NCBI GenBank assembly: GCA_963759165.1
Contig: CAVWXK010000001.1
Location: 3,058,164-3,122,163, forward strand
Reading direction: 5' to 3'
DNA: 64,000 bases
DNA from: an uncultured Pseudomonadota bacterium
Lineage (GTDB): Bacteria; Desulfobacterota; Binatia; Binatales; Binataceae
This document shows positions 2,035 through 23,192 of the stretch, in pieces. The notes under the pieces were generated by a model, which saw nothing but the letters and a program-made list of their open reading frames with translations, did no database searches and was not told where the DNA came from. Positions within the stretch are counted from its first letter, which is position 1, and each line of letters opens with the position of its first letter. The position numbers and the translations under genes were made by a program.

Positions 2035-2688
2035 ATGAGCCAGTTGGTCAATGCGATTCTCGTTCTCCTGGTACTCACCGGGTTTTGGCTCTTGAGCTCG
2101 AGCCGTCTGGCGGCCTGTATCCGTGCGGTCGCGATACAAGGAGTGCTGCTCGGGATTCTCGCCGTCGCCGTGCAGGGCGGACAGTTGTCCGTCACCGGCG
2201 TGCTTCTTCCCCTTACCAGCGCGGGGGTCAAGGGCTTCCTTCTGCCATGGTTGCTGTTTCGAGCGATGCGCGAAGCCGAGACCGCGCGCGAGGTCGAGCC
2301 ACTCATCAGCTATAACCTTTCGATCCTGTCAGGCGCCGTCGCTCTGGCTGTTTCGCTTTGGCTGGGGGAACGATTGAAGCTTCCGACTCAACCAGCTTCG
2401 TCCCTTCTCGTGCCCGCGGCGTTTTTCACCAGCCTGGTGGGCCTGCTCGTGATCGTCAGCCGGCGAAAAGCTCTGACTCAGGTGCTCGGGTACCTGGCGC
2501 TCGAAAATGGCGTTTACGCCTTCGGCGCCGCGGTCGCTCTTGAACTGCCGGTTCTCGTCGAACTCGGCATCCTGCTTGATGTCTTTGTAGGAGTGTTCGT
2601 AATGGGCATTGCGATATTTCACATTAGTCGCGAGTTCGATCATATCGACACGGACAAACTGGCCAGTCTCACCGACCAGCTTCGATGA
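2035..2688 (+). CDS. HyfE-like small membrane subunit (NuoK-related)
   Basis: 217 aa, all-hydrophobic, about 6 TM. Sits between the C-like and F-like subunits as in hyf operons. ATGA overlap with the next gene. Confidence 0.55.
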   Translation: MSQLVNAILVLLVLTGFWLLSSSRLAACIRAVAIQGVLLGILAVAVQGGQLSVTGVLLPLTSAGVKGFLLPWLLFRAMREAETAREVEPLISYNLSILSGAVALAVSLWLGERLKLPTQPASSLLVPAAFFTSLVGLLVIVSRRKALTQVLGYLALENGVYAFGAAVALELPVLVELGILLDVFVGVFVMGIAIFHISREFDHIDTDKLASLTDQLR

Positions 2689-4151
2689 TTACACTGCTCG
2701 TGCTGATTCCGGCCTGCGCCGGAGCCGTCGCGTTCTTTGTCGAATCGGATCGGCACCGCCGGGTTCTTCTGTTGTCAGCCGCAATGGCGCATACCGCGCT
2801 CAGCCTCGCAACTTGGGTCGTCCTGCCCACGGCCGCGTTGGGCGGCTGGCTCGCCGAAGACGCGTTGGGAAGGCTCTTTGAGACTCTAACCAGCCTTCTA
2901 TTCCTTGCCGCCGGCTTTTACGCCGTTGCCTATCTCCGCGAGGAACGAAGCCAGCCGCATGCCGATTTCGAAGAGGGCTTTCTTTTCTCCAACGCTCGCG
3001 AGGCGAGTTTCACTTGTTGTCTCCTTCTCTTCCTGGCCGCGATGACCCTGGTTACCGTCAGTCAGCATCTCGCGCTGCTTTGGGTGGCGATCGAGGCTAC
3101 AACTCTGGCCAGCGCCCCGCTGATTTACTTTCATCGGCATCATCGGTCGCTCGAAGCGACATGGAAGTATCTGCTGATCTGTTCCGTCGGGATCGCGCTT
3201 GCGCTGTTGGGTATCTTCTTCCTGGCGGTCGCCGCGACGAATCGGGATGGCTCTACTATTTCTCTCGTGGTCCAGGACCTTGGTTTGCACGCCCGTCACC
3301 TGAACGCCACGTGGTTTAAAGCGGCTTTTGTCCTGCTCCTCGTCGGCTATGGTACGAAGATGGGACTCGCGCCATTTCATACGTGGCTGCCCGACGCCCA
3401 CAGCGAAGCTCCCTCGGTCGCGTCCGCGCTCTTGTCGGGTGCGCTGCTTAACTGCGCGTTCCTGGGCATACTCCGGACTCAGGAGATCTGCGTTGCGGCG
3501 GGTTTGGCGGATTTCAGTGACAGACTGCTCCTGATTTTTGGTTTACTCTCGATGGCTGTCGCGGCCGTATTTATTGCCGGCCAGACTGACTATAAGCGCA
3601 TGCTCGCATACTCAAGTGTCGAGCACATGGGCATTCTCGCCGTCGGCGTAGGTCTTGGAGGCAGCGCGGTGTTTGGTGCGATGCTCCATGTGGTTAATCA
3701 TTCGCTGACCAAGGCGATGCTTTTTATGGTGGCCGGAAACCTGCTGGCCGTTTATCGCACCAAAAACATCGCCGATGTTGCCGGCGCTTTGAGCGTATTG
3801 CCGGCCTCAGGTCTTTTGTGGGTGCTGGGATTGTTCGCGATTACCGGCTCTCCGCCTTTCGGCCTGTTTCTCAGCGAGTTTACAATCCTGAAGGCCGCGT
3901 TGGACCAGGGTCAGGCGTTCGTGGCGGTTGTTTATCTTGGCCTGTTGGCCATCATTTTGGCGGCTATGGCCGCGCCGGCGCTCGCGATGGCGCAAGGAAT
4001 TCCGAGCAAGAACGTTACTACCCCAAGGAAAAGAAGTCTCGCGCTGACTGCCGTTCCGGCGATGCTCGGTGCGGCAGTCGTGGTGATGGGGGTTTATGTC
4101 CCCCCGGTTTTAACCCGCGCGCTCCGGGAAGCCGCGCGCCTCATTGGCTGA
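2685..4151 (+). CDS. HyfF/NuoM-N-family antiporter-like membrane subunit
   Basis: 488 aa. Motif GTKMGLAPFHTWLPDAHSEAPSVASALLSGALLN is typical of NuoM/N/HyfF proton-pumping subunits. Confidence 0.8.
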   Translation: MITLLVLIPACAGAVAFFVESDRHRRVLLLSAAMAHTALSLATWVVLPTAALGGWLAEDALGRLFETLTSLLFLAAGFYAVAYLREERSQPHADFEEGFLFSNAREASFTCCLLLFLAAMTLVTVSQHLALLWVAIEATTLASAPLIYFHRHHRSLEATWKYLLICSVGIALALLGIFFLAVAATNRDGSTISLVVQDLGLHARHLNATWFKAAFVLLLVGYGTKMGLAPFHTWLPDAHSEAPSVASALLSGALLNCAFLGILRTQEICVAAGLADFSDRLLLIFGLLSMAVAAVFIAGQTDYKRMLAYSSVEHMGILAVGVGLGGSAVFGAMLHVVNHSLTKAMLFMVAGNLLAVYRTKNIADVAGALSVLPASGLLWVLGLFAITGSPPFGLFLSEFTILKAALDQGQAFVAVVYLGLLAIILAAMAAPALAMAQGIPSKNVTTPRKRSLALTAVPAMLGAAVVVMGVYVPPVLTRALREAARLIG

Positions 4152-5664
4152 GCCCACCATGACCATCTCCGCTCCGTCTTTCCATAATGGCGAGCCCGTG
4201 TCGCTCGCGAGTATCCAGTGCTTGCCGATGCACGAGTTCAGAACCGGGATTATCTCAGCCGTGAACAAAGGCTCCAGCCTGACCGCCCTTTTTGGCACGC
4301 CGATGGAAAATGAGCACATCCAACTAATAGGCGTGCTCGCCGACCCGGTGACGAGCAGCCTCTCCTCGATCAGCACCGAGGCGGACGAGGCGTATCCGTG
4401 CTTGATGCTCGAGTGCCCGCAGGCGCATTGGTTCGAGCGCGAAATCGCGGAACAGTGGAGCGTACAGCCGCAAGGCCACTCGTGGCTCAAGCCAATCCGA
4501 TTCCACCTGCCCTATCGGTTGCCTCACGGCATCCGCGAAGCGCCGCTCCCTGGTGTAACCGACTTCTTCGCCATGCGCGGAGACGAAGTCCATGAGGTCG
4601 CCGTCGGTCCGGTACACGCGGGAATCATCGAACCTGGGCATTTCCGCTTCCAGTGTCACGGTGAGCAGGTTTTTCACCTGGAGATATCGCTCGGGTACCA
4701 GCATCGTGGCATCGAGCCCGCGCTTGTAGGCGGGCCCGGCAAACGCACGATCCATCTGGTCGAGACGCTGTCGGGAGATAGTTCAATCGGGCACGCAACC
4801 GCCTATTGTGAGGCGGTCGAGGGTCTAAGCGGCACCGTGGTTCCCGCCCGAGCACAAGTATTGCGCGGAATAGCGCTCGAACTCGAACGTCTCGCAAACC
4901 ATACCGGAGACCTTGGAGCGTTGGCGGGTGATGTCGGCTATCTGCCAACGGCGGCATATTGTGGCCGGATTCGCGGCGACTTCCTCAACATGACCGCGGC
5001 AATCTGTGGAAGCCGCTTCGGTCGTGGCATGATCAGACCAGGAGGGGTCCTATTCGATCTCGACACGCCGCTAGCGGCGGACCTTTCGCAGCGGCTCGAT
5101 AAGGCATTGAAGGACGTCGAGGATGCGGTCCGCCTTCTGTGGGATGCGCCATCCGTGCAGGCTCGTTTCGAGGACACCGGCGCGATCTCTCGCCAGACTT
5201 GCGAGGCGCTTGGGCTCGTCGGTCCCGCGGCTCGCGCCTGCGGTGTCGAGCGCGACATTCGGCAAGACTTTCCGAGCGGCGTCTTCAGGTTCGCTCAGAT
5301 CCCTATATCGAAATGGGACACAGGCGACGTTTTCGCACGTGCATGGGTGCGATGGCTCGAAATCCAACGTTCCGGCGCCTTTGTTCGGGAACAGCTCGCC
5401 GCCTTGCCTCAGGGGCCGATCCGTTCGGCAGTGGAACCGCTGGCGCCCGCCCATATGGTAGTTTCTTTAACCGAAGGCTGGCGTGGAGAAATCTGCCACG
5501 TAGCGATCACTGACGCCAAGGGACGGTTCGCTCGCTACAAGGTAGTCGATCCCTCGTTTCGCAACTGGATGGGCCTGGCGATTGCGATGCGCGACCAGCA
5601 GATATCCGACTTTCCGCTTTGCAACAAAAGCTTCAACCTCTCTTACTGTGGTCACGATCTCTGA
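4144..5664 (+). CDS. HycE/HyfG-like NuoC-NuoD fusion 'large subunit' lacking the [NiFe] cysteine ligands (Ehr-type)
   Basis: NuoC-like N-terminus (HWFEREIAEQW) plus NuoD/HycE-like core (GPVHAGIIEPGHFRF, LGYQHRGIE, ARAQVLRGIALELERLANH). Ligand motifs are degenerate: TLSGDSSIGH in place of RVCGICGFAH, and NLSYCGHDL-stop in place of DPCYSCTDR. Confidence 0.85.
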   Translation: MAEPTMTISAPSFHNGEPVSLASIQCLPMHEFRTGIISAVNKGSSLTALFGTPMENEHIQLIGVLADPVTSSLSSISTEADEAYPCLMLECPQAHWFEREIAEQWSVQPQGHSWLKPIRFHLPYRLPHGIREAPLPGVTDFFAMRGDEVHEVAVGPVHAGIIEPGHFRFQCHGEQVFHLEISLGYQHRGIEPALVGGPGKRTIHLVETLSGDSSIGHATAYCEAVEGLSGTVVPARAQVLRGIALELERLANHTGDLGALAGDVGYLPTAAYCGRIRGDFLNMTAAICGSRFGRGMIRPGGVLFDLDTPLAADLSQRLDKALKDVEDAVRLLWDAPSVQARFEDTGAISRQTCEALGLVGPAARACGVERDIRQDFPSGVFRFAQIPISKWDTGDVFARAWVRWLEIQRSGAFVREQLAALPQGPIRSAVEPLAPAHMVVSLTEGWRGEICHVAITDAKGRFARYKVVDPSFRNWMGLAIAMRDQQISDFPLCNKSFNLSYCGHDL

Positions 5665-5673
5665 GGACAAGCA

Positions 5674-6471
5674 GTGCCGGGTTTACTGATCACTCGATTA
5701 CGACAAGGCAAACGCACGCTACCATTCCCCAAGCCTGAGCCGCCTTTGCCGGAACGATTCCGCGGTCTTCCGGTACTCGATCAGTCGCGATGTGCATCAG
5801 GTTGCAGCGCCTGCGTTGATGTGTGTCCGACCGACGCGATTACCAATAGCGGAACGCTCCGGATCGACCTCGGGCGGTGCCTGTTTTGTCCCGAGTGCGC
5901 CAACGCCTGTCCCGAAGGAGCGATTCAATTCAGCCGGCAATACCGCCTCGCGACGACCGAGCGATCCGACCTGGTCCTGGAATCCGGACAAACCTTGAAG
6001 CTCGCGCGGCGTCTTGGCGACGACATTCATCGCATTCTCGGGCGATCACTCAAGCTCCGGCAGGTCAGCGCCGGCGGATGCAACGGATGCGAAGCTGATG
6101 TTAACGTTCTGAACACGGTGGTGTTTGATCTCGGGCGCTTCGGCATTCAGTTCGTGGCGTCACCGCGCCATGCGGACGGCCTCCTGATCACTGGTCCGGT
6201 TACGCGGAACATGCGCGCCGCACTCGAGAAGACGTACGAGGCCGTACCCGATCCGAAGATCGTGATCGCGGTCGGCGCATGCGCAATCAATGGTGGTCCG
6301 TTTCGGGATCATCCGGAAGTTCTCAATGGCGCGAACGATATCCTTCCGATTGATCTCTTCATCCCGGGGTGTCCCCCTCATCCGATCACCATTCTCGATG
6401 GACTGCTGCGGCTCCTGGGGGAAATCCAGGATCCCGAAAGAAGCTCCAAAGTCGCCAAGGTGTCAGGGTAA
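5674..6471 (+). CDS. Fusion of a 2x[4Fe-4S] ferredoxin (HycF/NuoI-like) with a NuoB/HycG-like small subunit
   Basis: N-terminus has CASGCSACVDVCP and CLFCPECANACP. C-terminus has GGCNGCE ... GACAINGGPF ... PGCPPHP, i.e. the four NuoB/HycG cluster cysteines are retained. Confidence 0.8.
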   Translation: MPGLLITRLRQGKRTLPFPKPEPPLPERFRGLPVLDQSRCASGCSACVDVCPTDAITNSGTLRIDLGRCLFCPECANACPEGAIQFSRQYRLATTERSDLVLESGQTLKLARRLGDDIHRILGRSLKLRQVSAGGCNGCEADVNVLNTVVFDLGRFGIQFVASPRHADGLLITGPVTRNMRAALEKTYEAVPDPKIVIAVGACAINGGPFRDHPEVLNGANDILPIDLFIPGCPPHPITILDGLLRLLGEIQDPERSSKVAKVSG

Positions 6472-6655
6472 GCGCCGGAATGAAAATCCCTTGCATGTTG
6501 CCGCAAAGCGAGAGTCGGCGGTCAAAATCGCAAACGGCGCGTCAGATCGAAAAATCGCTTGGGCGAGCGAGCCCGGCTGTGAGTGTGATCGCCGCGCCGC
6601 CAAAACAGAGGAGCTACCAACAACCTCTGCGCAGAAATGTGTCGTCCGGGATGCC

Positions 6656-7990
6656 TTAGTCTATGTGATAGCGCTTGCGCTTGCGCCAGAGGGTTGCGAT
6701 GCCGATGCCGAGGGTGTCCGCGGCCTCTTCAAGCGTAGCCGCTTGCGCCAGAACGCGCCTTATGTGCTCCTGTTCGACCTTTTCCAGGGTAGCGTCAGGC
6801 GGCAGTTCGCGCAGAGCCACCACCGTCGGCTGAAATATGAGATCGGGCAGGTCCTCCTTCAGTATCAGGTTGCCGCGGCTCAGGACGACGGCGCGCTCAA
6901 TCGCGTTGCGAAGTTCGCGGATGTTGCCGGGCCAGGCGTAGGTGGTCAAAGCGTTGGCCACCTCAGGGGATAGTTGCAGCCCAGGGCGACGATTGCGAAG
7001 GCGAGCTTCGGCCAGGAATCGATCAGCCAGTGCGATCACGTCCTCCGCGCGTTCGCGTAGCGCCGGGACGCGCAGGCTGATGACGTTGAGACGGTAAAAG
7101 AGATCGGAACGGAATCTGCCCGCCGATACCTCTTGCTGGAGGTCGCGGTTGGAAGCGGCAATGATGCGGGTATCAACCTGAATAGTGTGTTGGCCTCCGA
7201 CCCGCTCGAAGCGCTGTTCCTGCAGGAAGCGAAGGAACTTGGTCTGAAGGGACGGCGGAATGTCTGCGATCTCGTCGAGAAAGACCGTGCCTCCATCGGC
7301 GGCCTCAAGCCGTCCCGGCTTGTCCTTGACCGCTCCGGTGAATGCGCCGCGCACGTGCCCGAAGAGCTCGCTCTCGAGCAGATGTTCGGAGAGGGTGGTG
7401 CAGTTGACGACGACGAACGGGCGCTCGCGGCGCGAACTCCAATCGTGGATCTGGCGGGCGAGGACATTCTTCCCGGTGCCGCTTTCGCCAGTCAAGAGAA
7501 TCGTGGCGTCGCTCGCGGCGGCTTGGCGAGCGGTTTCAAGCAAGGCGGTCATCAGCGGGCTGCGCGATTCCAGCAGGGGAACGCCGTCGAGGGCGCTCCG
7601 CAGGATACGATTTTCCGAACGCAGTTCTTTCACTTCCAGCGCGCGTTCGACGATGTGCTGGATCTGGTCCAGGGAGAAAGGCTTGGTCAAGTAGTCATAG
7701 GCGCCGGCTTTCATCGCCGCAACGGCGTTGGCTACCGTCGCGTAAGCTGTCATCAGGATTACGATGGTATCCGGATAACGACGCTTGATTTCCATAAGCA
7801 ACTCGAGGCCGTTCATCTCGGCCATCCGATAGTCACTCAGCACGAGATCGAAATCGCCTTGCCGGGAAAGCGTGGCAAGGGCCTCTCTTCCGCTTTCAGC
7901 GGTCTTCACCTGGTGCCCGCACGAGTCGAGGAAGGTTGCGAGGCTCTGACGGATGTTCTTTTCGTCGTCGACTATAAGGAGCCTTGCCAT
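6656..7990 (-). CDS. Sigma54-dependent response regulator (NtrC family: REC + AAA+ + Fis-type HTH)
   Basis: Likely start MARLLIVDDEKNIRQSL (ATG at 7990, overlapping the kinase stop as TAATG). Walker A GESGTGKN, GAFTGA loop, C-terminal HTH TLEEAADTLGIGIATLWRKRKRY. Confidence 0.9.
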   Translation of the reverse strand: MARLLIVDDEKNIRQSLATFLDSCGHQVKTAESGREALATLSRQGDFDLVLSDYRMAEMNGLELLMEIKRRYPDTIVILMTAYATVANAVAAMKAGAYDYLTKPFSLDQIQHIVERALEVKELRSENRILRSALDGVPLLESRSPLMTALLETARQAAASDATILLTGESGTGKNVLARQIHDWSSRRERPFVVVNCTTLSEHLLESELFGHVRGAFTGAVKDKPGRLEAADGGTVFLDEIADIPPSLQTKFLRFLQEQRFERVGGQHTIQVDTRIIAASNRDLQQEVSAGRFRSDLFYRLNVISLRVPALRERAEDVIALADRFLAEARLRNRRPGLQLSPEVANALTTYAWPGNIRELRNAIERAVVLSRGNLILKEDLPDLIFQPTVVALRELPPDATLEKVEQEHIRRVLAQAATLEEAADTLGIGIATLWRKRKRYHID

Positions 7991-9777
7991 TAGGTGCGCT
8001 CCGCGATTGGTAGCTCTACGGTAAACTTGCTGCCCCGCTCGGAACTCTCGACGAAGATTCGCCCCCCGTGGGCTTCCACGATGTCCTTGACGATCGCCAG
8101 GCCTAGTCCGGCGGCGCCGGGCTCGTAGCCGTCGGCACTCCACTGCGAAAAGCGCGCGAAGATGTGGCCGCGAATCTCCGGTGCGATGCCGGGACCGGTA
8201 TCGGCAACTGTGAGCCTAAGCTGGCGCCCTTGCCGCTCGGCGAATACGTCGATCGAGCCTCCGCTCGGAGTATAGCGCAACGCGTTGCCGATCAGATTTG
8301 ATATCACCCAGGAAAGCTTGACCGGGTCGCCCCGTGCTTCAAGCCTTGGTTCATCAACATGGGTCGCGAGCCTCACCTGTTTCTGCTCAGCCTGGATGGC
8401 AAAGTTCCTGACCACCCCTACGACCAATTGGGCGAGGTCGAGCGGGGCGCTACTCACCCTGATGGAGGCCATCTCGCCGCGAGCAAGATTCAAAAGACCG
8501 TCGGCCAACTGGCGGATTCGTCCGGCCTCTTCGACGATGGCGGTGACCAGTTCCTGTTGTTTGGGATCGAGCGTGCTCCTGTTTCGCTGGAGCAGTTCCG
8601 CTGCCAGAGCGAGCGAGGTAAGCGGGGTCCTCAGCTCGTGGGAGAGGGTTGCGACCAGGTTTGCGCGGGCGCGGTCCTTGTCACGCAGGTAAGTGATGTC
8701 CTGCAGAATCAGTATGGTACCAAATGATTGCCCATCGCCCTGTCTGAGAGGGACTGGTTTTAGCAGATAGGTATGGTCACGCCCGCGCACGTGCAGGTCG
8801 ACTTCGATCTGCTGCCCGTTGCCGGGCGGCGTTGCGGCGCCGCGCAGGGCCGATCGCACACGAAGGTAATGAGGGTGATTACTGTTCAAATCGTCAAACG
8901 GGCTGCCAAGTGCGTCCTCTCTCTCGACCCCGAGGATGATTGAGGCAAGCTCGTTGATGTGTGCGACAATACCACTCGGATCGATCAATACGATCCCGTC
9001 TTCGAGGCTCTCGATGATCGCCTCGGTCTTGTTTTTCTCATAAATCAACCGGTCGACGTTGAGCTTGTCGAATTGCTCGAGCCGCTCGGCCATCTTGTTG
9101 AATTCCGAGGCTACCGCCTGAAGTTCGGCCAGCTTCTGCTCCCCCAGCCTTAACTGGGGCGTGCGAAGGCTGAAGCTTCGCAAGCGTTCCGCGAGTTCAG
9201 CGAGCGGCTTCGATATCGTCCAGGCGAGCGTCCAGGAAAGCGCCGCTCCAAACACCAGCAAAGCGGCAAGTCCGGCGGCGAACTCGTAGGTGAGCCTCGT
9301 TCCCATGCGGCTCGCGCGGCTGTCCGCGGCGAACATGGCGTCACGATTTATCTGGATGAGCTTGTCGAGGCGGGCATGCAGCACGGCGAATTCTTCGTCG
9401 TGACGCGCGGGCGCTCCGCCAGCTTCAATCTCGGCAAATAGGCGCCGCCCCCGTTCGTGAATCTCGCGCGCGAGTTCCGCCTCTCCGGCCTCGGTGATGT
9501 CGTGTTCCTCAACGTCGATCCAATGGAAAAATTCGTCACGGCTCGGGGAAAGGGCGGCGGAAAGCTTTCCGTCGCGCTCGCCGATCTGAAGGGCGCCGAG
9601 TGCGGCGTGCATATGCTGTGACGCTTCGATGCTTACGTAGTTACGGTACAGGGTTTCGCGAATCGCCCCGCTTAGACGGTAAACCTGCGGCAATGCCAGT
9701 ACGCCCAGCAGCATGGCGATCGCGAGCATTATAAGAGTGCCGTTGCGAATACGATTGCGGAGCGGCGGCGCGTTCAC
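7990..9777 (-). CDS. Membrane sensor histidine kinase (2 TM, periplasmic helical domain, HAMP, PAS, HisKA, HATPase_c)
   Basis: H-box LSHELRTPLTSL. N/G boxes NLIGNALRYT, DTGPGI, GLGLAIV. PAS segment IESLEDGIVLIDPSG. 4-nt overlap with the upstream USP gene. Confidence 0.9.
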   Translation of the reverse strand: MNAPPLRNRIRNGTLIMLAIAMLLGVLALPQVYRLSGAIRETLYRNYVSIEASQHMHAALGALQIGERDGKLSAALSPSRDEFFHWIDVEEHDITEAGEAELAREIHERGRRLFAEIEAGGAPARHDEEFAVLHARLDKLIQINRDAMFAADSRASRMGTRLTYEFAAGLAALLVFGAALSWTLAWTISKPLAELAERLRSFSLRTPQLRLGEQKLAELQAVASEFNKMAERLEQFDKLNVDRLIYEKNKTEAIIESLEDGIVLIDPSGIVAHINELASIILGVEREDALGSPFDDLNSNHPHYLRVRSALRGAATPPGNGQQIEVDLHVRGRDHTYLLKPVPLRQGDGQSFGTILILQDITYLRDKDRARANLVATLSHELRTPLTSLALAAELLQRNRSTLDPKQQELVTAIVEEAGRIRQLADGLLNLARGEMASIRVSSAPLDLAQLVVGVVRNFAIQAEQKQVRLATHVDEPRLEARGDPVKLSWVISNLIGNALRYTPSGGSIDVFAERQGRQLRLTVADTGPGIAPEIRGHIFARFSQWSADGYEPGAAGLGLAIVKDIVEAHGGRIFVESSERGSKFTVELPIAERT

Positions 9778-10247
9778 GGCTTCACTCCTTGGGCTTCATA
9801 GCCGACGAGCTCGATTTCAAAGTGACGCCCGCGGTTGATGAGCTGACGTGTGATGGAGCGCCGCAAGAGACGGCTTCCACCTCCGGGCCGGGTCCGGTGA
9901 AGGATGATCTTGCTAATCCGCTCGTCGCGGGCGAAGTCCGTCAAGGCCTGGGTTACATCCGGCGCTTTGAGCCAAACGACCTCGGCGCCCAAATCCGCGG
10001 CGAGGAAAAGGCTGTCGAGGAGGGCGTGAAACTTTTCGCTGGGGATGGCAGCGGTCGCCTCCCTGGGCGTTTCAACGTGGACCACAAAGAGTTCTCCTTC
10101 CTCTTCGCTCGTCGCGCGAACCACCTTGCGCAGCAGCGTCTCGGTGCCGGAGGCGTTTGCGGACAGGCAGAGCATGACACCTTTGCGCAGGCGGCGAGGT
10201 TGGGTTCGATTTCTGAACCGGAGGGCGCTGGTTGATCCGCTAGTCAT
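9774..10247 (-). CDS. Stand-alone KdpD-type universal stress protein (USP) domain protein
   Basis: 157 aa. VMLCLSANASGTETLLRKVVRAT...FVVHVETP...LAADLGAEVVWLKAPDV is clearly paralogous to the USP half of the preceding gene. ATG 10247 overlaps the upstream stop. Confidence 0.7.
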   Translation of the reverse strand: MTSGSTSALRFRNRTQPRRLRKGVMLCLSANASGTETLLRKVVRATSEEEGELFVVHVETPREATAAIPSEKFHALLDSLFLAADLGAEVVWLKAPDVTQALTDFARDERISKIILHRTRPGGGSRLLRRSITRQLINRGRHFEIELVGYEAQGVKP

Positions 10248-11395
10248 GATCCTGGCTGCCGAGGATTTCGACGTCGAAATCCTCGGCCTCGGAGATGAGG
10301 CGGTTGGTTATCGAGCGTCTCAGGATCAGGTTCCACAGACGCTTGTGTGTGCGGCCCACCACAATTCGGGTGATGTGCTTTTCGTGCGCGAAGTCGAGAA
10401 GCGGCTTCACGATGTCGGGGGACTTAAGCCAGACAACCTCGGCGCCCAGATCCGCCGCGAGGTTGATATTGTCGAGCAGGGCACGAAAATTACCGGTGCT
10501 GATCTTCTGGACCGACTCGGCTGGGGTCTCCACGTGCACCGCATACCAGTCGGCGTTTAGCTGGGCCGCGGTCCGCGAGGCCTTGCGCAAGAGCTGATCG
10601 CTGCCCTCCGGATTCGACGACAAACAGACCATGAGCCTCTCGGTTACGGCGGGCCTCCGTCCGCGCCCACGTTTGGCGAGCTCCAGGTCTTCGCGATGCC
10701 GGCTCTGGTCCCTGGCCACCTCGCGCAGAGCGAGCTCGCGCAGTGAGGCGAGATTGCTTGGCTTGAAGAAGTTCTTAAGCGCGTGCTCGACCTGCTCCGG
10801 GGGATAAATCTTTCCTTCACGCAGGCGTTCGCGAAGCTCCCCCACTGCGATGTCGACGGTCACCACCTGGTCGGCACGCGCCAGAAATCTATCCGGCAGC
10901 GTTTCTCTTACCTCGACCCCGGTTAACCGCTTGACCATCTGACTGAGGCTTTCCAGATGCTGGACGTTGAAAGCGGTGATGACGTTGATGCCGTTGGCAA
11001 CGAGTTCCTCGAACGTCCTGATAGCGCTTGGTGTGCCGGGAGCCCGGGGCGTTGGTGTGGGCTAACTCGTCGACCACGGCGATCTCGGGCTTACGCGCCA
11101 GCACGGCCTCAAGGTCCATCTCCTTGAGGACAACGCCGCGATAGGAGACTTCGCGCAAAGGGACGACTTCGAGGTCACCTAGCAAGGCTGCGGTATCGGC
11201 GCGCCCGTGAGTCTCGATTACGCCAATTACAACGTCATGTCCTTGAGCACGAAGCTGGTGCGCTTCCTGGAGCATGCGGTAGGTTTTCCCGACCCCCGCC
11301 GCTCCACCCACATAGATCTTGAGCCTGGCCTTCTGAGACCTCGGTACGAGGTCCAGAAAGGCTTCTGGCTCGCGGCGATCTTCCTCGTCACTCAT
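10240..11395 (-). CDS. kdpD: Soluble KdpD N-terminal sensor domain + USP domain protein (no kinase core); frame broken by one extra base near 11011
   Basis: P-loop GGAAGVGKTYRML and RHTKRYQDV. On the minus strand GAC GTT C GAG GAA: removing one base restores ...RYQDVEELVANGINVITAFNVQHLESLSQMV... and joins ORFs 10889..11395 and 10240..10938. A USP domain follows (RLMVCLSSNPEG...IVVGRT). Confidence 0.8.
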
Positions 11396-11589
11396 TCAGG
11401 CTTCTACTGGAGGGCCCCTGTCGCCATTACAGCTTGAGGAACAAATGGCCCTTTCATCTATTGTTGCCAAAGTCACGGGTAATGCCTACCAAGCGCGGGG
11501 CACGGCGCGGAGAGCCGCGGCCATCGGAAACGAGATCGGGCCGAGGTCTTGAAACGGGAGCCGCGCGCAATCGAGCACACGATACTGCC

Positions 11590-12174
11590 TCAGCGGGAGT
11601 TCGTGCCCAGGTCGTCGAGCGCCAGGTTGAGCATCACGACGTTTACTCCCGACTCGCCGACGACCCCGGCCCATCTGGGCCGCGTGTGCTCGCGTACCAG
11701 GCGTCGCACCGTGTCTTCGTTTAATCCTCGCGCCCTCGCGACGCGGGCAACCTGGAGCTCCGCCGCCGTCGGACTGATCTCGGGGTCGAGGCCGCTGCCG
11801 GAGGCAGTAACCAAATCCACCGGAACCCGTGACGCAGAGGTTCCAGGATTGTTCGCCAGAACGCCCTTGAGCTGCGCCCGCACGTTCTCGATGAGAGTCT
11901 TGTTGGTGGGGCCCAGGTTCGAGCCGCCGGAACTGGTCGCGTCGTAGCCTTTGTCCCCTGCGGCTGAGGGTCGCCCGTGGAAATAGCGCGGGCTGGTGAA
12001 GGTCTGACCAATCAGCGCCGAAGCGACGACCTTACCGTCGCGCGCTATCAGGCTGCCATTGGCTTGCCAGGGGAAGATAACCTGGGCGAGACCGAACACC
12101 AGCACCGGATAGATAATTCCAGTGAGGATCGTGAGTGCGCAGGTTAGTTTGAATGCGATCCGGAGATTGCGCAT
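11590..12174 (-). CDS. kdpC: K+-transporting ATPase subunit C
   Basis: 194 aa, N-terminal TM. Typical KdpC motifs GSLI, ASSGSNLGPTN-like (TSSGGSNLGPTN), SGSGLDPEISP. Confidence 0.95.
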   Translation of the reverse strand: MRNLRIAFKLTCALTILTGIIYPVLVFGLAQVIFPWQANGSLIARDGKVVASALIGQTFTSPRYFHGRPSAAGDKGYDATSSGGSNLGPTNKTLIENVRAQLKGVLANNPGTSASRVPVDLVTASGSGLDPEISPTAAELQVARVARARGLNEDTVRRLVREHTRPRWAGVVGESGVNVVMLNLALDDLGTNSR

Positions 12175-12183
12175 GGGCTTTTC

Positions 12184-14223
12184 CTAGATTAGGTGAAGTG
12201 CCGATATTACGAGGTCGATGGCTTTGATGCCGATGAAGGGGATTACCACTCCACCGACGCCGTAAATCAGGAGGTTGCGCGTAAGGATTGCCGACGCTCC
12301 CACGGGTCGGTATTGAACGCCTCGCAGAGCGAGCGGGATCAGGGCGATTATTATCAACGCGTTGAAGATCACCGCCGAGAGAATGGCGCTCTCGGGACTC
12401 GCGAGACGCATCACGTTGAGCGCCTGGAGCGCCGGGTAGCTAACGACGAACATCGCCGGGATTATCGCGAAGTACTTGGCAACGTCGTTTGCGATAGAAA
12501 AGGTGGTGAGCGCGCCGCGCGTCATCAGCAGCTGCTTGCCTATCTCAACCACCTCGAGAATCTTGGTCGGGTTGGAGTCAAGATCGATCATATTGCCGGC
12601 CTCGCGCGCGGCCTGGGTACCGGCGTTCATGGCGACCCCAACGTCGGCTTGAGCGAGCGCCGGGGCATCGTTGGTTCCGTCGCCGATCATCGCCACCAGC
12701 TTGCCCTGGGCCTGTTCTTCCCGAATCAGGCGCAGCTTCGTTTCGGGGGTAGCCTCGGCCAGAAAATCGTCGACCCCGGATTCACCTGCGATCGCCTGCG
12801 CGGTGAGCGGGTTGTCACCAGTGATCATGACGGTACGCATGCCCATCGCACGGAGCCTCGCGAACCGCTCTTTGATGCCCTCCTTGATAACGTCCTTGAG
12901 GTGGATGACCCCTAGAACGCGACCGCGATCCGCAACCGCGAGCGGCGTGCCGCCGCTACGCGCGATCCGCTCCACAATATCCTTAAGTTCGGTTGACAAC
13001 TCGCCGCCATGTTCGGTCACGAACTTCGCCACCTGGTCGTAAGCGCCCTTGCGGATAATGCGGCCGTTGAGGTCAACGCCGCTCATCCTGGTTTGCGCGG
13101 AGAAGGGAATGAAATGCGCTTCATGGTCGGCGAATTCCCGGCCGCGCAGATTGAACTGGCGTTTGGCCAGAACCGTGATGGAGCGGCCTTCAGGCGTCTC
13201 GTCGGCCAGCGAAGCCAACTGTGCGGCGTCGGCGAGTTGTTCCACTGGGACGCCTTTCACGGGAATGAACTCCGTCGCCATCCGGTTGCCGAGCGTGATC
13301 GTCCCGGTCTTGTCCAGTAAGAGGGTGTCCACGTCGCCCGCGGCTTCGACCGCGCGCCCGGACATGGCCAGCACGTTGTGCTGAACAAGCCGGTCCATTC
13401 CGGCGATGCCGATCGCGGAGAGCAGGCCCCCGATCGTGGTTGGGATGAGGCACACGAGCAGCGCGACCAACACCGGCAGTGAAAGCCTGGTGCCGCCGTA
13501 GAGCGCGAACGGGTAGAGCGTCACGACCACCAACAGGAAGACTATCGTAAGGCCCGAAAGCAGGATGCTGAGAGCGATCTCGTTGGGCGTCTTTTGGCGA
13601 TGAGCGCCCTCGACCAGCGCGATCATGCGATCGAGGAAGCTCTCACCGGGATTCGCCGTGATACGGACTTTGATCCAGTCGGAGATAACCGTGGTACCAC
13701 CGGTCACGGCGCTTCGGTCGCCGCCGCTTTCACGGATCACCGGAGCCGATTCGCCGGTTATCGCCGCTTCGTTGACCGCCGCCACACCTTCGATGACCTC
13801 GCCGTCGCCCGGAATGATGTCGCCCGCTTCGATCAGGACTACGTCGCCGCGACGCAACGACGGGGCTGGAACCATGATGGTTGCGCCGTCGCGGATAAGC
13901 TTGGCCTGGGTGTCGGTGCGGGTTTTCCTCAGTGCATCCGCCTGCGCCTTGCCCCGGCCCTCGGCCATCGCCTCCGCGAAGTTTGCGAACAGGACCGTGA
14001 ACCAGAGCCAGAGCGCGATCTGGGCCTCGAAAACCGCTAGCGCGGCATGGCCTTCAACCGCGTCGCGGAACAGGCTGATCGTGGTAAGAACGCTCGTCAC
14101 CTCGACCACGAACATCACCGGATTCTTGACCATCAGACGGGGGTCGAGCTTGCGCAGCGAGTCGATCGCCGCCCGGCCGACTATGTTCCTGTCCCAGATC
14201 GAACTTTGTTTTCGGGTCGCCAT
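12184..14223 (-). CDS. kdpB: K+-transporting P-type ATPase subunit B
   Basis: 679 aa. P-type signatures [36 protein letters not shown]. Confidence 0.97.
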
Positions 14224-14238
14224 TAGTCTCTTTCTCGA

Positions 14239-15966
14239 TCAGTAGGTTATGCCGGCAAGCATCTGGAGATGCTCGATCACGGGTCCGAGCGCGAGCGCCG
14301 GAAAAAACGTGAGGGCGCCGACTATCAGGATCACGCCGATGAGAAGTCCGACGAATATCGGACTGGTGGTCGGAAAAGTCCCCGCGCTCGGGGGAATCGA
14401 TTTCTTGGGCGCCAGCGAGCCTGCCAGCGCCAAAGCCGGGATCGCCATCATGAAGCGTCCGAACAGCATCCCAATGGCTAGTGTCCAATTGTAGAAGTTG
14501 GTATTGGCGTTGAGGCCGGCGAATGCGGACCCGTTGTTTCCGGCCGCTTGCGAGTATGCGTACATGATTTGCGAGAAACCGTGAGGTCCAGGATTCGATA
14601 TTCCGGCGAGGCCCGCGGAAAGAACGCACGCGGCGGCGGTCCCGAACAGGATTATCGCGGGAAAAATCAGTACATAGAGCATCGCCAGCTTCATTTCCCG
14701 GCTTTCGATCTTCTTTCCGAGGTACTCGGGCGTCCGGCCGACCATGAGGCCGGCGATAAAAACCGACAGTATCGCCATTACCAGCATCCCGTAGAGACCG
14801 GAACCGACGCCGCCGAAGATCACTTCTCCAAGCTGGATATTCACCAGCGGCACGAGACCGCCGAGCGGCGTGAAACTGTCGTGCATCGCGTTTACCGCAC
14901 CGCAGGAGGTGTCAGTAGTCACGGTTGCCCAGAGAGCCGAATCCACTATTCCGAAACGGACCTCCTTGCCCTCCATGTTGCCGCCGCTTTCGGTGGCCGA
15001 GGCGGAGGTATTGATTCCCAATGCCGCTATCTCCGGGTTTCCGCGTTGCTCGCTCCATATCGCGACGGCCGCGCCCATCACGAACAACAGGGTCATGGCC
15101 GCGAACAGCGTCCACCCCTGGCGCGTGTCTCCCGCCATCCTGCCGAAGGTATTGGTCAGGCCGGCGCCGATGGCGAAGATCGCGAGCATCTCAAGCAGGT
15201 TGGTAAGCGGAGTCGGATTCTCGTAAGGGTGGGCCGAGTTCGCGTTGAAGAAACCGCCACCATTGGTGCCGAGTTCCTTGATGATTTCCTGGGAGGCCAC
15301 TGGCCCTTGAGCGACGACCTGTTCCGCACCCTCGAGAGTCTTGGCGTGAGTGTAGGGGCTGAAGTTTTGTGGAACTCCCTGCCAAACCAGAACCAGCGCG
15401 AACACGATGCACAGCGGGAGCAGGATCCAAAGCGTGGCGCGCGTTAGATCAACCCAAAAGTTGCCAAGGGTTTTGGTGGAGCGACGCACGAAGCCGCGAA
15501 TGATGGCGATCGCCATCGCGATACCTGAGGCCGCTGAGACAAAGTTGTGATACGCCAGACCCGTCATCTGGGTCAGATAGCCCATCGTGGTTTCGCCGGC
15601 GTAGGCCTGCCAATTGGTGTTGGTACTGAAACTGGCGGCGGTGTTGAAAGCCAGGGCCGGAGATACACCAGGCAGACCCTGCGGATTAAGCGGAAGAACT
15701 CCTTGCAGCCGCTCGATGGCGTAGAGCGTCAGCATGCCGACCAGGCTGAATAGAAGCATGCTTACCGAGTACTCGACCCAGGTCATCTCGATTCCCGGCT
15801 GGATGCCGCAAGTCCGATAAATGAGTCGCTCAAAAGGTCTCAGGACGGGGTCGAGGAATGTGCGCCGGCCCGAGAAAACATTCGTCATATAGGCGCCCAA
15901 AGGCACCGTCACCGCGAGAACCAGGAAAAAAAAGACGGCAACCTGGATCAGAGCATTGGTCAGCAT
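14239..15966 (-). CDS. kdpA: K+-transporting ATPase subunit A
   Basis: 575 aa polytopic protein. KdpA-typical segments [19 protein letters not shown] and [21 protein letters not shown]. Confidence 0.97.
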
Positions 15967-15984
15967 GTGTTCGTTCCAGTTCGG

Positions 15985-16077
15985 TCAGAATTTCTCGGGG
16001 CGCAGCAGGGCGTAGACCAGGTAGACGAGCAAACCCACGGACACGAGTGAGCCCAGTATCAGTTCCCAAAGAGTCAT
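15985..16077 (-). CDS. kdpF: K+-transporting ATPase subunit F (30 aa)
   Basis: Not in the ORF track. Manual translation gives MTLWELILGSLVSVGLLVYLVYALLRPEKF-stop: a single TM with the KdpF-like ending YLxYALLRPEKF, 18 nt upstream of kdpA. Confidence 0.7.
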   Translation of the reverse strand: MTLWELILGSLVSVGLLVYLVYALLRPEKF

Positions 16078-16157
16078 AGGAGATCACATCCCCGGACGTA
16101 AGCGATACTCACGAGGAAGAAAGCTACCGTGACCACTATCGATAAGAAGTCGACCAT
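16074..16157 (-). CDS. Candidate 27-aa hydrophobic peptide translationally coupled to kdpF
   Basis: Manual translation gives MVDFLSIVVTVAFFLVSIAYVRGCDLL-stop. GAGGG lies 5 nt upstream of this ATG (an in-frame ATG at 16169 would add MRVV). Its TGA overlaps the kdpF ATG (ATGA). Confidence 0.35.
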   Translation of the reverse strand: MVDFLSIVVTVAFFLVSIAYVRGCDLL

Positions 16158-16273
16158 AACGACCCTCATCCAACGCAACTCCTATGCCGCCGAAAGATCA
16201 ACGATTTATATGGATTGCAGGCGATGCGCGGCCGCAAGTTTTTCAAAGTGAAATGAGATGAAGCGTTCAGTTT

Positions 16274-16307
16274 GAAAAGCGGGAAGCCTCTCGGAACGCT
16301 GCTTCGC
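16274..16307 (-). terminator. Terminator-like hairpin inside the kdp leader (possible attenuator)
   Basis: Minus strand GCGAAGC-N13-GCTTC(CC)GC followed by TTTTCAAA, about 110 nt upstream of the small ORF/kdpF. The stem has a 2-nt bulge and the U-tract is short. Confidence 0.25.
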
Positions 16308-16489
16308 TAGTCAAACCACCCCTGACCCGCCCCGTGAAAGTGTGCCGTCCGGCGATAGAGATTTCGGCCGGGTGTGGTCGGTTGGTGCCGGTATTTCCAG
16401 TTCGAAATCCCGATTCGGACTCGCGGCGAAAGGTAGCTTAGCTTGACAAGATCTTCCGGCGCTCCGTACGGTCTGGCCTGCACCCCGCG

Positions 16490-16750
16490 ATGCAAGTTTT
16501 TTTAAGCGATCCGGGTTACTCGCAGATAGCCGGTCAGTGGCGGGATCTGATGGCCGGGAAGTATCTCGACTGGATGCCGATACGGCTCTACGCCGCGCAT
16601 GGATTCGCTGCCGCGATCGCATACGCAGGGGTGCCATTGGCGATGATGACTTGGGCGATCATCAGTCTGAGAAAGCTTCTCCTGAGCGCCAACGGCATCG
16701 GCGCGCCTATCCAACCGGAATCGCAACGGATCTCGTTGAAGACCCCGTAG
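16490..16750 (+). CDS. Hypothetical small membrane protein (weakly supported)
   Basis: 86-aa ORF with one hydrophobic helix (GFAAAIAYAGVPLAMMTWAIISL). Moderately GC3-biased codons. TTGACA-N18-TACGGT lies just upstream. The stop is embedded in hairpin 16742..16756. No recognisable family and no clear SD. Confidence 0.2.
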   Translation: MQVFLSDPGYSQIAGQWRDLMAGKYLDWMPIRLYAAHGFAAAIAYAGVPLAMMTWAIISLRKLLLSANGIGAPIQPESQRISLKTP

Positions 16751-16756
16751 CGGGGT
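16742..16756. terminator. Short GC hairpin between convergent genes
   Basis: ACCCCG-TAG-CGGGGT (6-bp stem) between ORF 16490..16750 (+) and the GT39-like gene end (16798, -). No U-tract on either strand. Confidence 0.2.
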
Positions 16757-16797
16757 TAGCGTCATCTACAAATAGTTCGTATGCGCCCAGGCCGAAA

Positions 16798-18360
16798 TCA
16801 CTTCAATTCCCAGATTCGGATTCTCGGCCCGGGCCGCTCCATGCTGGCGATGCTCCCGATCGGCGCGTAATAGGCGTCCTGAGCATCGACGATCGGCGCC
16901 CGAGCACCGCGCTTCACCGGATCGATGTCGAGAACGAGGGCCCCCTGTGAATTCAGCGCCGCAAGCTCCGCCTCTGACGGGCCGCGCGAATAGAACGATA
17001 TCGGCGCGAAGCTGTCCGACAGGACCCAGTGAATGCCCCTGACGTGTAATGTCGCGGGATCGCCGAATTCAACGAAGTTGTAAGCGGAGGTCACCTGTGG
17101 CTTGCCGCATAGATTGCCCCGGTCGGTCACCGCAATCACACTTCCCCTAGGAATATGTTCCTCAATCCATTGCCTCGCCAACGTTCGACTATCCGGCCGC
17201 AAGAGCAGGCGGTCGAGCTCAACATCGCGGATCAGCGACGGCAGCAGGAGAAGGCCAAGCCCGAGGCCGACCACGGCGGTGGCGATTTTTTTGCCCAGAC
17301 GAGCGGAGAGCATCGAGCCGGCCTGAGCCGCCGCGATGCCGCCGAGAATCGCCATCGCCGGCAACGGAACAATCAGGTAGCGATAGAATACGTAGCGGCT
17401 GCCGGTCATGCCGAGGAACGCGACGCCGACGAACGCAAGCAAGGAAAGCGTCCCGGGCTTGGGCCGGATAAGCGCCCACAGCATCGACGCGAGCAAAAAG
17501 AGCTGCAGGCCGATGCCGAAACTATCCGGCATAGCTCGCAGCAGAAGCCACGACCATCCGTGGCCGGCCTGCGGGTTCGGCAGTCCGTCGAGCACGAAGC
17601 CTCTTTGATAAACGAAATCGTTCACGGTCTGCTGCCAATCGAGAATGAAATAGGGCGTCGCGCAAACGAAGGCGACCACGGTTACGTAGCCGGCCAAATA
17701 GATCCGCAGATCGCGGTAGGAGCGCAGCAAGGATCGGCCCTCGCGACGGCGGGCGCCGAGATGAGCCGCCGCGATGCCGAACGCTATCGCGCCGGCCGGG
17801 TACTTGGTGGCGGTCGCCAGTCCGGCGAAGAAACCGGCGCCGGCGTAATCGCGGTAACAGCCACGATGCACGATTCGCAGAATCATCGCGATCGCCATCG
17901 TGAGCCAGAACCCCATCGCCGCGTCGGTGGTGGCATACTTCGCCTCGCGCATATGGAGCGTTGAGACGGCGAGAATCGCCGCGGCGCTCAGCGCGGCCTC
18001 CGTTCCGAACGCGGGCGCCGCGGCGAAATAGATCGCCGGCACGGTAGCCGTCGCGAAAGCAGCCGAGACGCGGCGCACGATCAGACAGGCGCGACTTCCG
18101 TCGTCGCCGCCGAAAGCCGCGCCAAACTCCTCGCCCGCAACCGCCGCGTATATCCGAAGCGCGGCGTGGTTTACGTACATTTGTGCAGCCGGGTAGATGG
18201 CGAAGTTCGGATTCCAGTCCTGCTGGAAGCCGAGCGCGCGCGACATCATATATTCTTCATCCGGCCTATATCTGTCCGGGAGGCCGAAACTGGTCGCGGT
18301 GAACCGCAACCATCCCGCCATCAGGGTCAGCAGCGCGAGGATAACGAAACGCGCCTTCAC
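16798..18360 (-). CDS. Polytopic GT-C glycosyltransferase, family 39/ArnT-PMT-like
   Basis: Preferred start is GTG at 18360, overlapping the upstream stop as GTGA (MKARFVILALLTLMAGWLRF...); the track's TTG 18411 is an alternative. First-loop acidic motif RYRPDEEYMMSRAL. More than 10 TM helices, then a soluble C-terminal domain. Confidence 0.65.
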   Translation of the reverse strand: MKARFVILALLTLMAGWLRFTATSFGLPDRYRPDEEYMMSRALGFQQDWNPNFAIYPAAQMYVNHAALRIYAAVAGEEFGAAFGGDDGSRACLIVRRVSAAFATATVPAIYFAAAPAFGTEAALSAAAILAVSTLHMREAKYATTDAAMGFWLTMAIAMILRIVHRGCYRDYAGAGFFAGLATATKYPAGAIAFGIAAAHLGARRREGRSLLRSYRDLRIYLAGYVTVVAFVCATPYFILDWQQTVNDFVYQRGFVLDGLPNPQAGHGWSWLLLRAMPDSFGIGLQLFLLASMLWALIRPKPGTLSLLAFVGVAFLGMTGSRYVFYRYLIVPLPAMAILGGIAAAQAGSMLSARLGKKIATAVVGLGLGLLLLPSLIRDVELDRLLLRPDSRTLARQWIEEHIPRGSVIAVTDRGNLCGKPQVTSAYNFVEFGDPATLHVRGIHWVLSDSFAPISFYSRGPSEAELAALNSQGALVLDIDPVKRGARAPIVDAQDAYYAPIGSIASMERPGPRIRIWELK

Positions 18361-20807: not shown

Positions 20808-20810
20808 GGC

Positions 20811-22943: not shown

Positions 22944-23192
22944 TCGAGTTTTTTTCTTATGACCTGGGTTTCATCCGGCGCCGGCTGACGGTTGGGTCGC
23001 ATAATACGAACGCCGGGTCAAAAGGACAACGATGTTTCAGCATAGCGCGCTTTTGCGAATGGGCGCATGCTCGTGATAGAAAGCGCTCCGGGCCTGCCCG
23101 TGATTGTTCGATGGTTTACCAATCCCCGCTCCCGGCGTGAAAATTTCCGGTCACGCACGAGGCCTCCGCTTTCCGACGAGAGTCCTGCCTTA

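Follow-up and report, generated by a model that had tools for sequence, protein, structure and literature searches.

Organization of the kdp operon

In a 64-kb stretch of contig CAVWXK010000001.1 from an uncultured bacterium (hereafter, the window), the genes of a KdpFABC potassium pump are followed by a set of regulatory genes. All positions given below are window coordinates, and all genes of the operon lie on the minus strand. From 16277 to 6656 their order is a small open reading frame (ORF), kdpF, kdpA, kdpB, kdpC, a gene encoding the N-terminal domain of KdpD joined to a universal stress protein domain (KdpD-N/Usp), a Usp paralogue (USP2), a sensor histidine kinase and a sigma-54-dependent response regulator (Table 1). 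Judging from the sequence and from analogy with experimentally studied systems, we consider it likely that this is one Kdp operon of the type governed by the regulator DVU3334 in Desulfovibrio vulgaris, in which sigma-54 control of transcription would be combined with a serine-kinase brake exerted on the pump by the KdpD-N/Usp protein.

Both the gene junctions and the distribution of terminator-like sites support a single operon. The Usp-containing ORF ends with TAG at 10240..10242 and USP2 begins with ATG at 10247..10245, giving an 8-nt overlap at 10240..10247 (ATGACTAG). The GTG start codon of the kinase at 9777 overlaps the USP2 stop codon (GTGA at 9774..9777), and the kinase TAA overlaps the ATG of the regulator in TAATG at 7990. 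An earlier note on this DNA, made from the sequence alone, had placed kdpFABC and the tail genes at these positions and described them as chained by overlapping stop and start codons; all three junctions match that description. The sole terminator-like sites on the minus strand within 6300..16900 are two hairpins that follow the regulator gene. A gap of 194 nt (11396..11589) separates kdpC from the KdpD-N/Usp gene; it contains no terminator-like site and folds no better than its shuffled versions (z = +1.76). No riboswitch or other Rfam RNA was detected in 6000..17500 at gathering thresholds.

Table 1. Features of the kdp operon and its flanks, in the direction of transcription (window coordinates)
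Feature	Positions	Strand	Observations
Distal putative activator palindrome (upstream activating sequence, UAS)	16265..16277	-	TTTCAAACTGAAC; one mismatch to TTNCA-N3-TGNAA; starts 88 nt upstream of the promoter 15-mer
Proximal putative activator palindrome (UAS)	16241..16253	-	TTTCACTTTGAAA; exact TTNCA-N3-TGNAA; starts 64 nt upstream of the promoter 15-mer
Sigma-54-type -24/-12 element	16175..16189	-	cGGCATaggagTTGC; motif match, 17 nt before the small-ORF ATG
Hydrophobic ORF of 27 codons	16074..16157	-	MVDFLSIVVTVAFFLVSIAYVRGCDLL; overlaps the kdpF start (ATGA)
kdpF	15988..16077	-	29 aa; NCBIfam TIGR02115, 44.7 bits, above cut-off
kdpA	14239..15966	-	74-84% identity to KdpA of Binataceae loci
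kdpB	12184..14223	-	Glu161 and Ser162 kept
kdpC	11590..12174	-	Pfam KdpC, 252.9 bits
KdpD-N/Usp gene, 5' part	11012..11395	-	Residues 1-128; Walker A (G30, G36-K37-T38), Walker B (D109-E110)
One-base insertion (frameshift) inside the KdpD-N domain	11011..11011	-	Comparison with relatives
KdpD-N/Usp gene, 3' part	10240..11010	-	KdpD positions 109-208 including R190; E. coli-type Usp domain (RKASR-X8-WYAVH)
Free USP (USP2)	9774..10247	-	157 aa; old paralogue of the KdpD Usp domain
Sensor histidine kinase	7990..9777	-	Transmembrane segment 1, periplasmic four-helix bundle, transmembrane segment 2, HAMP, PAS, HisKA, HATPase_c
Sigma-54-dependent response regulator	6656..7990	-	REC, AAA+ with GAFTGA, HTH_8
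Two terminator-like hairpins, 3' of the regulator stop codon	6489..6570 (6570..6555 and 6508..6489)	-	Terminator scan

A putative sigma-54 promoter and activator sites upstream of kdpF

Relatives of the operon were collected in two ways, by scanning a genome collection with the kinase and by scanning metagenomes with the joined KdpD-N/Usp protein, which yielded 80 more loci; the window proteins were then mapped onto all of them. Related loci are designated by L-numbers. Matches to the sigma-54-type -24/-12 element had GG and TG fixed and at least seven of the ten consensus positions, and the background was taken from all fetched DNA.

The earlier note had found no convincing -24/-12 promoter upstream of kdpF by eye. 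Such an element is nonetheless present at 16189..16175, and its position is conserved: in 10 relatives (L003, L005, L023, L024, L028, L031, L040, L045, L057 and L063) an equivalent element ends 13-23 nt before the start of the small ORF, against a chance expectation of 0.054 matches per 60 nt. A weaker GG-N10-GC stands at the equivalent place in L035. Because the small ORF has the kinase gene as its immediate neighbor in four loci (L069, L071, L077 and L091), the promoter there must lie further upstream.

Two palindromes precede the element. The proximal one, TTTCACTTTGAAA, is the sole exact match to TTNCA-N3-TGNAA in the entire 64-kb window. The two palindromes are 24 nt apart, and the identical geometry recurs in L024, L031, L040 and L095. 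Across 16 loci, the 2141 nt upstream of the promoter elements contain 21 palindrome matches, 9 of them exact, compared with about 0.97 (0.087 exact) expected. Published DVU3334 sites read GTTACATTTTGTAAC, ATTACAAAATGAAAT and GTTTCATTTTGAAAT, those used to build the motif being CGTTACATTTTGTAACGG, GATTACAAAATGAAATAT and CGTTTCATTTTGAAATGT; they share the N3 spacer with the window site. Since the -24/-12 element and the two palindromes sit upstream of kdp and both are conserved in relatives, the output of the regulator is very probably sigma-54-dependent transcription of kdp itself. It is above all the palindrome shared with DVU3334 that leads us to assign the regulator to kdp and to the Desulfovibrio system. 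A candidate site for integration host factor, seen by eye between the palindromes and the promoter of the window, is not kept in L024 and was dropped.

Sensor kinase and response regulator

The kinase matches the Pfam families PAS, HisKA and HATPase_c; HAMP scores 19.7 bits, which is below the cut-off, and no GAF domain is found. Two hydrophobic segments occupy about residues 10-36 and 162-189. Sequence searches with residues 1-189 matched no Pfam family or PDB sequence. An AlphaFold model of the sensor region, built from 31 sequences, is all-helical with a predicted local distance difference test (pLDDT) score of 86.9, and consists of four helices, the first and last of which run into the membrane segments. 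A Foldseek search with this model returned periplasmic four-helix-bundle sensors. The best superposition was with Pseudomonas aeruginosa KinB (4llc_A; template modelling (TM) score 0.77, root-mean-square deviation 2.7 Å, 24% identity), at a weak E-value of 0.045.

The regulator contains REC, Sigma54_activat (230.9 bits), AAA_lid_14 and HTH_8 domains, with GAFTGA at residue 215. Neither protein has the hallmarks of KdpD or KdpE. The transmembrane and GAF segment of E. coli KdpD has no tblastn match in the window, and its dimerization and catalytic (DHp/CA) regions give only generic matches, at 30-31% identity, to three kinases. The match to E. coli KdpE is confined to the REC domain of the sigma-54 regulator; no OmpR-type KdpE is present in the window. 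The earlier note had described a kinase with two transmembrane segments, a periplasmic helical domain, HAMP and PAS but no GAF, paired with an NtrC-type REC-AAA+-HTH regulator in place of KdpD and KdpE; the domain assignments, with HAMP sub-threshold, and the structural model bear out this description.

The KdpD-N/Usp protein and its frameshift

The region 10240..11395 spans 1156 nt, which is not a multiple of three, and holds two ORFs rather than one. An ORF at 10889..11395 covers Pfam KdpD positions 2-109 and then continues in the wrong frame until it meets a stop codon at 10889. The remainder of the protein, KdpD 109-208 and the Usp domain, is encoded in another frame. The window reads CAG GAC GTT C GAG GAA where relatives read CAG GAC GTC GAG GAA, which places one extra base at 11011; about 60 relatives were examined and all are in frame at this point (QDV-EEL). 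Joining the frames gives a protein of 384 aa with no other stops, both halves being otherwise fully conserved, that has KdpD-N and Usp domains and no transmembrane segments, GAF domain or kinase core. The earlier note's reading of a KdpD-N plus USP protein without a kinase core thus holds for domain content once the frames are joined, but the protein is not encoded by a single ORF and the frameshift had been overlooked. Against NCBIfam NF038185 ('KdpD-like non-kinase potassium sensor') the joined protein scores 388.5 bits, below the cut-off of 550.

What might this protein do? In E. coli, the N-terminal domain of KdpD acts as an atypical serine kinase: by phosphorylating KdpB Ser162 it inhibits the pump (Silberberg et al. 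2024, PMC11018627). The isolated KdpD-N domain suffices for this reaction, and a short KdpD/Usp protein of Deinococcus geothermalis does likewise when stimulated by cyclic di-AMP (c-di-AMP); the same study describes the roles of the Walker A, Walker B and R190 residues and of KdpB E161 and S162 (PMC11018627). The joined window protein aligns one-to-one with E. coli KdpD residues 1-190. It keeps the Walker A motif G-X5-GKT, both Walker B residues and R190, with Y replacing W39, and the putative target residues E161 and S162 are kept in the window KdpB. Because the catalytic residues and the target are conserved, and because the work on E. coli and Deinococcus demonstrates this activity, the KdpD-N/Usp protein is most likely not the sensor of the histidine kinase but, by analogy, an atypical serine kinase acting on KdpB Ser162 and switching off existing pumps. 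The simplest reading of the operon would then be two parallel controls, transcription through the histidine kinase and sigma-54 activator, and pump inhibition through KdpD-N/Usp.

The Usp motif of KdpD-N/Usp (RKASR-X8-WYAVH) and that of USP2 (RKVVR-X8-LFVVH) are of the E. coli type (RXXXR-X8-WXAV) and not of the Staphylococcus aureus c-di-AMP type (SXS-X20-FTAXY); other binding modes are possible.

Programmed frameshifting at 11011 was considered and rejected, as the extra base occurs in no relative and has no slippery or stop-codon context. This leaves either a recent loss of the pump brake in this organism or an assembly error. If the insertion is real, the N-terminal fragment is probably inactive, because the break after residue 128 removes R190 and the conserved NVQHLES region. 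We regard the chances as evenly balanced that the frameshift is instead an assembly or sequencing error, in which case a normal 384-aa protein would be made and the locus would not be degenerate. The change is a single inserted base (GTC to GTTC) in a gene that is in frame at this point in the relatives and whose halves are otherwise fully conserved, with the NF038185 score given above, and at least two other metagenome assemblies show single breaks in the operon, one in the Usp part (L005) and one in the kinase (L042). Pointing the other way, the rest of the window has long unbroken ORFs with no obvious pattern of indel errors, and relatives that lack the KdpD-N/Usp gene show it to be dispensable.

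The apparent frame break in L005, a contig_-named MFD metagenome-assembled genome (MAG) assembly, lies at 9588..9678, and that in L042 at 7656..7668. Single breaks such as these may often be assembly errors.

A second, lineage-restricted Usp protein

USP2 scores 20.4 bits against Pfam Usp, below the cut-off of 24, and in NCBIfam its best matches fall in the Usp region of KdpD. Only four loci have a second USP gene, namely the window, L022, L031 and L037; in the other close loci readable at that junction, KdpD-N/Usp is directly followed by the kinase. The free USP to which the earlier note drew attention is therefore present, but it is not a general part of the system. USP2 copies are 50-74% identical to each other, compared with 43-54% to the Usp domains of KdpD-N/Usp, and the two Usp copies of the window are 55% identical in DNA. 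Because USP2 copies are closer to each other than to any KdpD Usp domain, and given the low DNA identity, the sequences point to an old, lineage-restricted duplication of the KdpD Usp domain that a small sub-lineage has retained. USP2 would most plausibly modulate either the serine kinase or the histidine kinase.

In L031 the second USP gene (11155..11619) overlaps the KdpD-N/Usp stop codon by 4 nt and keeps the WYAVH motif lost in the window USP2. An unrelated ORF of 110 codons (11805..12137) lies between it and the kinase.

Gene order in related loci

The genome-collection scan with the kinase returned MAGs of Candidatus Binataceae and 'Deltaproteobacteria' at 64-70% identity, and close homologues number in the hundreds in the protein database, most of them either without a name or carrying the label Binataceae. 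In close relatives the usual order is kdpABC, KdpD-N/Usp, kinase and sigma-54 activator; the activator is present in 13 of the 13 close loci that extend at least 3.5 kb downstream of KdpD-N/Usp. With respect to the tail of four genes described in the earlier note, KdpD-N/Usp, kinase and activator are thus usual in these loci, and the extra USP is confined to the four loci named above.

In more distant loci these components, with kdpABC as the fourth, are arranged in at least four further orders. With D standing for KdpD-N/Usp, HK for the histidine kinase and EBP for the sigma-54 activator (enhancer-binding protein), these are kdpABC-EBP-D-HK, EBP-HK-kdpABC-D, EBP-kdpABC-D-HK and kdpABC-HK-D. 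The architecture is common in Candidatus Binataceae, and permuted orders occur in other metagenomic lineages.

These arrangements bear on the proposal, put forward in the earlier note for K+ or turgor information, of a relay in trans. In this scheme KdpD-N/Usp would act with the free USP as a sensor of K+, turgor or nucleotides and pass the information on to the HAMP-PAS kinase, several polypeptides together making up a 'split KdpD' on a foreign chassis. KdpD-N/Usp does stand directly beside the kinase in most orders (D-HK-EBP, EBP-D-HK, HK-D). The authors of the D. vulgaris study took DVU3336 and DVU3335 as one split kinase, and the KdpD-N and Usp domains of E. coli KdpD modulate the balance between its kinase and phosphatase activities (summarised in PMC11018627). 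On the other hand, in L001, L023 and L004 the kinase adjoins kdpABC without any KdpD-N/Usp gene, and in L069, L071, L077 and L091 the two genes lie at opposite ends of the operon. The kinase also has sensor domains of its own, the periplasmic bundle and PAS, and in the window both it and the regulator are intact while KdpD-N/Usp is frameshifted. Moreover, KdpB Ser162 phosphorylation gives an isolated KdpD-N a self-sufficient role, one in which short KdpD/Usp proteins work in Deinococcus. On balance, a relay in trans appears unlikely, and we prefer the serine-kinase role for KdpD-N/Usp.

A further possibility is that the pair of kinase and activator has an unrelated sigma-54 regulon as its target and only happens to adjoin kdp. 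Family members of 25-29% identity are indeed found away from kdp, in Bacteroidota L006, Parabacteroides L106 and Brocadia loci, and the evidence that ties the regulator to the kdp promoter in the window is at motif level only. A scan of a plasmid collection for a cultured example gave as its best full-length match a Parabacteroides protein that pairs with a sigma-54 regulator and is not beside kdp. Yet the pair stays linked to kdp through several independent rearrangements of the genes; upstream of kdp, many loci have both the activator motif and the -24/-12 element at fixed spacing, the only exact motif match of the window included; and in D. vulgaris the homologous regulator was placed on the kdp promoter by DNA-affinity-purified chip (DAP-chip) analysis. 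We therefore regard an unrelated regulon as very improbable.

L023 (ENA contig_68043) has the kinase at 10001..11788, directly after kdpFABC; a KdpD-N/Usp gene and a neighboring regulator gene are both missing. On the opposite strand, 7.5 kb away (19295..20674), lies a gene for a sigma-54 response regulator of 44% identity, and transposase genes are found upstream of kdp. In some distant loci kdpC is followed by a gene of 370-520 codons that by eye we judge to be porin-like (L059 2914..4179, L068 8671..9795, L004 7605..9176). It precedes KdpD-N/Usp in L059 and L068 and the kinase in L004, where KdpD-N/Usp is absent.

A small ORF preceding kdpF

The hydrophobic ORF that overlaps the start of kdpF is not called by gene finders and has no Pfam or NCBIfam family match; a literature search for a small ORF upstream of kdpF found nothing relevant. 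About 25 loci nevertheless share the pattern D..T..FF...Y..xC..L, also written M.D....T..FF...Y..xC..L, which corresponds to a single helix, and the ORF usually overlaps kdpF by ATGA. Besides the window, it was seen in L001, L003, L005, L023, L024, L028, L031, L035, L038, L040, L046, L057, L063, L064, L068, L069, L071, L078, L086 and L091. Loci that lack the sigma-54 activator contain it too. The ORF may encode an undescribed Kdp subunit or a leader peptide.

A model for control of the operon

In the model that we favor, the part concerning transcription draws on the sequence, the comparative data and the D. vulgaris experiments, and the post-translational part on work in E. coli and Deinococcus. 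At low K+ or under a related stress, the kinase, with its KinB-like periplasmic four-helix bundle, two transmembrane segments and PAS domain, would phosphorylate the regulator. The regulator would bind both TTNCA-N3-TGNAA palindromes, whose starts precede the promoter element by 64 and 88 nt, and its AAA+ domain, with the GAFTGA motif, would open the complex formed by the sigma-54 holoenzyme at this -24/-12 element (16189..16175). Kinase and regulator would thereby activate the operon that encodes them, and positive feedback is expected. KdpD-N/Usp, for its part, would phosphorylate KdpB Ser162 and so silence pumps already made.

Several observations weigh against this model. The presumed orthology to DVU3334 and DVU3335 is based on architecture and the shared DNA motif, and the structural match of the sensor to KinB has a weak E-value. 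An activator encoded in its own target operon needs basal expression, and no sigma-70-like promoter was seen in the 194-nt gap between kdpC and the KdpD-N/Usp gene; nor was rpoN seen in the 64-kb window. The promoter element is not uniformly placed, as L001 has no convincing one and in L038, L042, L046 and L095 it lies 130-190 nt further upstream. In the window, 17 nt separate the GC of the -12 element from the ATG of the small ORF, and in most relatives 13-14 nt. With the -12 element so close to this ATG, the sigma-54 transcript would be nearly leaderless, with a predicted leader of about 1-7 nt, an unusual geometry. Finally, that KdpD-N/Usp and the kinase are neighbors in most gene orders would also fit a functional interaction between them.

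A more speculative scheme can be drawn, which we consider rather improbable. KdpD-N/Usp and the free Usp would be trans-acting subunits of the KinB-like kinase, coupling the brake on KdpB to sigma-54-dependent kdp transcription, and the 27-residue peptide would be a further Kdp subunit or a K+-responsive leader. If such a sensor of several polypeptides were real, many 'KdpE-less, short-KdpD' lineages would have a dedicated and different control system.

Genomic neighborhood

Convergent with the regulator gene, 2685..6471 on the plus strand holds genes reminiscent of complex I or of a membrane-bound hydrogenase. This cluster encodes an antiporter subunit of the Mrp/NuoL kind, a NuoD-like 49-kDa subunit and a NuoB-like subunit that carries fused 4Fe-4S domains. 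The region 16798..25937, located upstream of the kdp promoter, contains several large genes, two with weak PMT_2 glycosyltransferase matches and one with a PA14 domain; three others (233, 582 and 710 aa) have no Pfam match. Two more histidine kinases are encoded in the window, one with PAS domains at 26281..28317 (+) and one at about 32718..33347 (+). No second sigma-54 activator was found in the 64 kb.

Comparison with known systems

The closest precedent comes from D. vulgaris Hildenborough, in which Rajeev et al. (2011) mapped the targets of response regulators (PMC3333781). There, DVU3334, a sigma-54-dependent response regulator that 'regulates its own operon', binds DNA upstream of kdpF (DVU3339.1), with DAP-chip placing it on the kdp promoter; DVU3336 is a KdpD-N/Usp protein and DVU3335 a sensory-box kinase, which those authors took to be a single kinase divided between two ORFs (PMC3333781). 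Kazakov et al. (2015) list DVU3334 with GAFTGA, the target DVU3339.1-DVU3337 and the function 'potassium uptake' (PMC4641369). Orthologues of the system have been noted in D. vulgaris Miyazaki and Syntrophobacter fumaroxidans. In both the D. vulgaris operon (DVU3339.1-DVU3334) and that of the window, kdpFABC precedes genes for a non-kinase KdpD-N/Usp protein, a PAS kinase and a GAFTGA-containing sigma-54 response regulator, and the palindrome has the form TTNCA-N3-TGNAA; the regulator targets the promoter of its own operon in D. vulgaris and, at motif level, here. The two differ in phylum, the relatives of the window being Candidatus Binataceae, and in the extra free USP and the frameshifted KdpD-N gene of the window. 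The D. vulgaris promoter is also bound by DVU0596 and DVU3305.

The arrangement, which the earlier note called a rewired sensor module, had accordingly been described already, down to the 'split' KdpD-N/Usp protein DVU3336 (PMC3333781, PMC4641369). The window operon is a new example of the known DVU3334-type system, with an extra Usp paralogue and a broken KdpD-N gene as its twists. It reveals no new kind of system, the wiring having been published in 2011. What it adds is an extension of a little-cited sigma-54 control of Kdp from Desulfovibrio to uncultured Binataceae and other soil and sediment lineages, where it is apparently the normal arrangement, together with concrete sites: a promoter, two activator sites, a frameshift base and a conserved small ORF.

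As in E. coli, kdpFABC here appears to be controlled by a two-component system encoded just downstream, and the KdpD-N and Usp domains are homologous to those of E. coli KdpD (53% identity over residues 1-128 and 41% over 116-368). The window kinase, however, lacks the segment of four transmembrane helices and the GAF domain of KdpD, and KdpD-N/Usp is a separate polypeptide. E. coli KdpE is an OmpR-type winged-helix protein, whereas the window regulator is an NtrC-type sigma-54 activator.

The kinase resembles P. aeruginosa KinB, the partner of NtrC-type AlgB, in its overall plan. KinB likewise has two transmembrane segments, a periplasmic helical bundle, HAMP, PAS and a kinase core, and works with an NtrC-family regulator; many close homologues of the window kinase are named 'NtrC-family ... 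KinB' by the Joint Genome Institute (JGI). The KinB regulon is alginate rather than kdp, and the likeness of the sensor domains is structural only (TM score 0.77, weak E = 0.045), with no sequence match to PDB or Pfam.

Finally, KdpD-N/Usp itself resembles the short KdpD/Usp serine kinases (D. geothermalis KdpD; NF038185), which also consist of KdpD-N and Usp only and with which it shares Walker A, Walker B, R190 and KdpB E161/S162. It differs from them in its score (388.5 bits against a cut-off of 550), its E. coli-type Usp motif and its interrupted frame. A 2024 census deemed organisms with a short KdpD/Usp and no KdpE to be purely post-translational in their control, lacking transcriptional control of kdp (PMC11018627). 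In the window, by contrast, a dedicated sigma-54 system is adjacent, and in the loci collected here a different kinase and activator adjoin the pump genes. This qualifies the census and suggests that at least some short-KdpD species without KdpE use a sigma-54 kinase/activator system.

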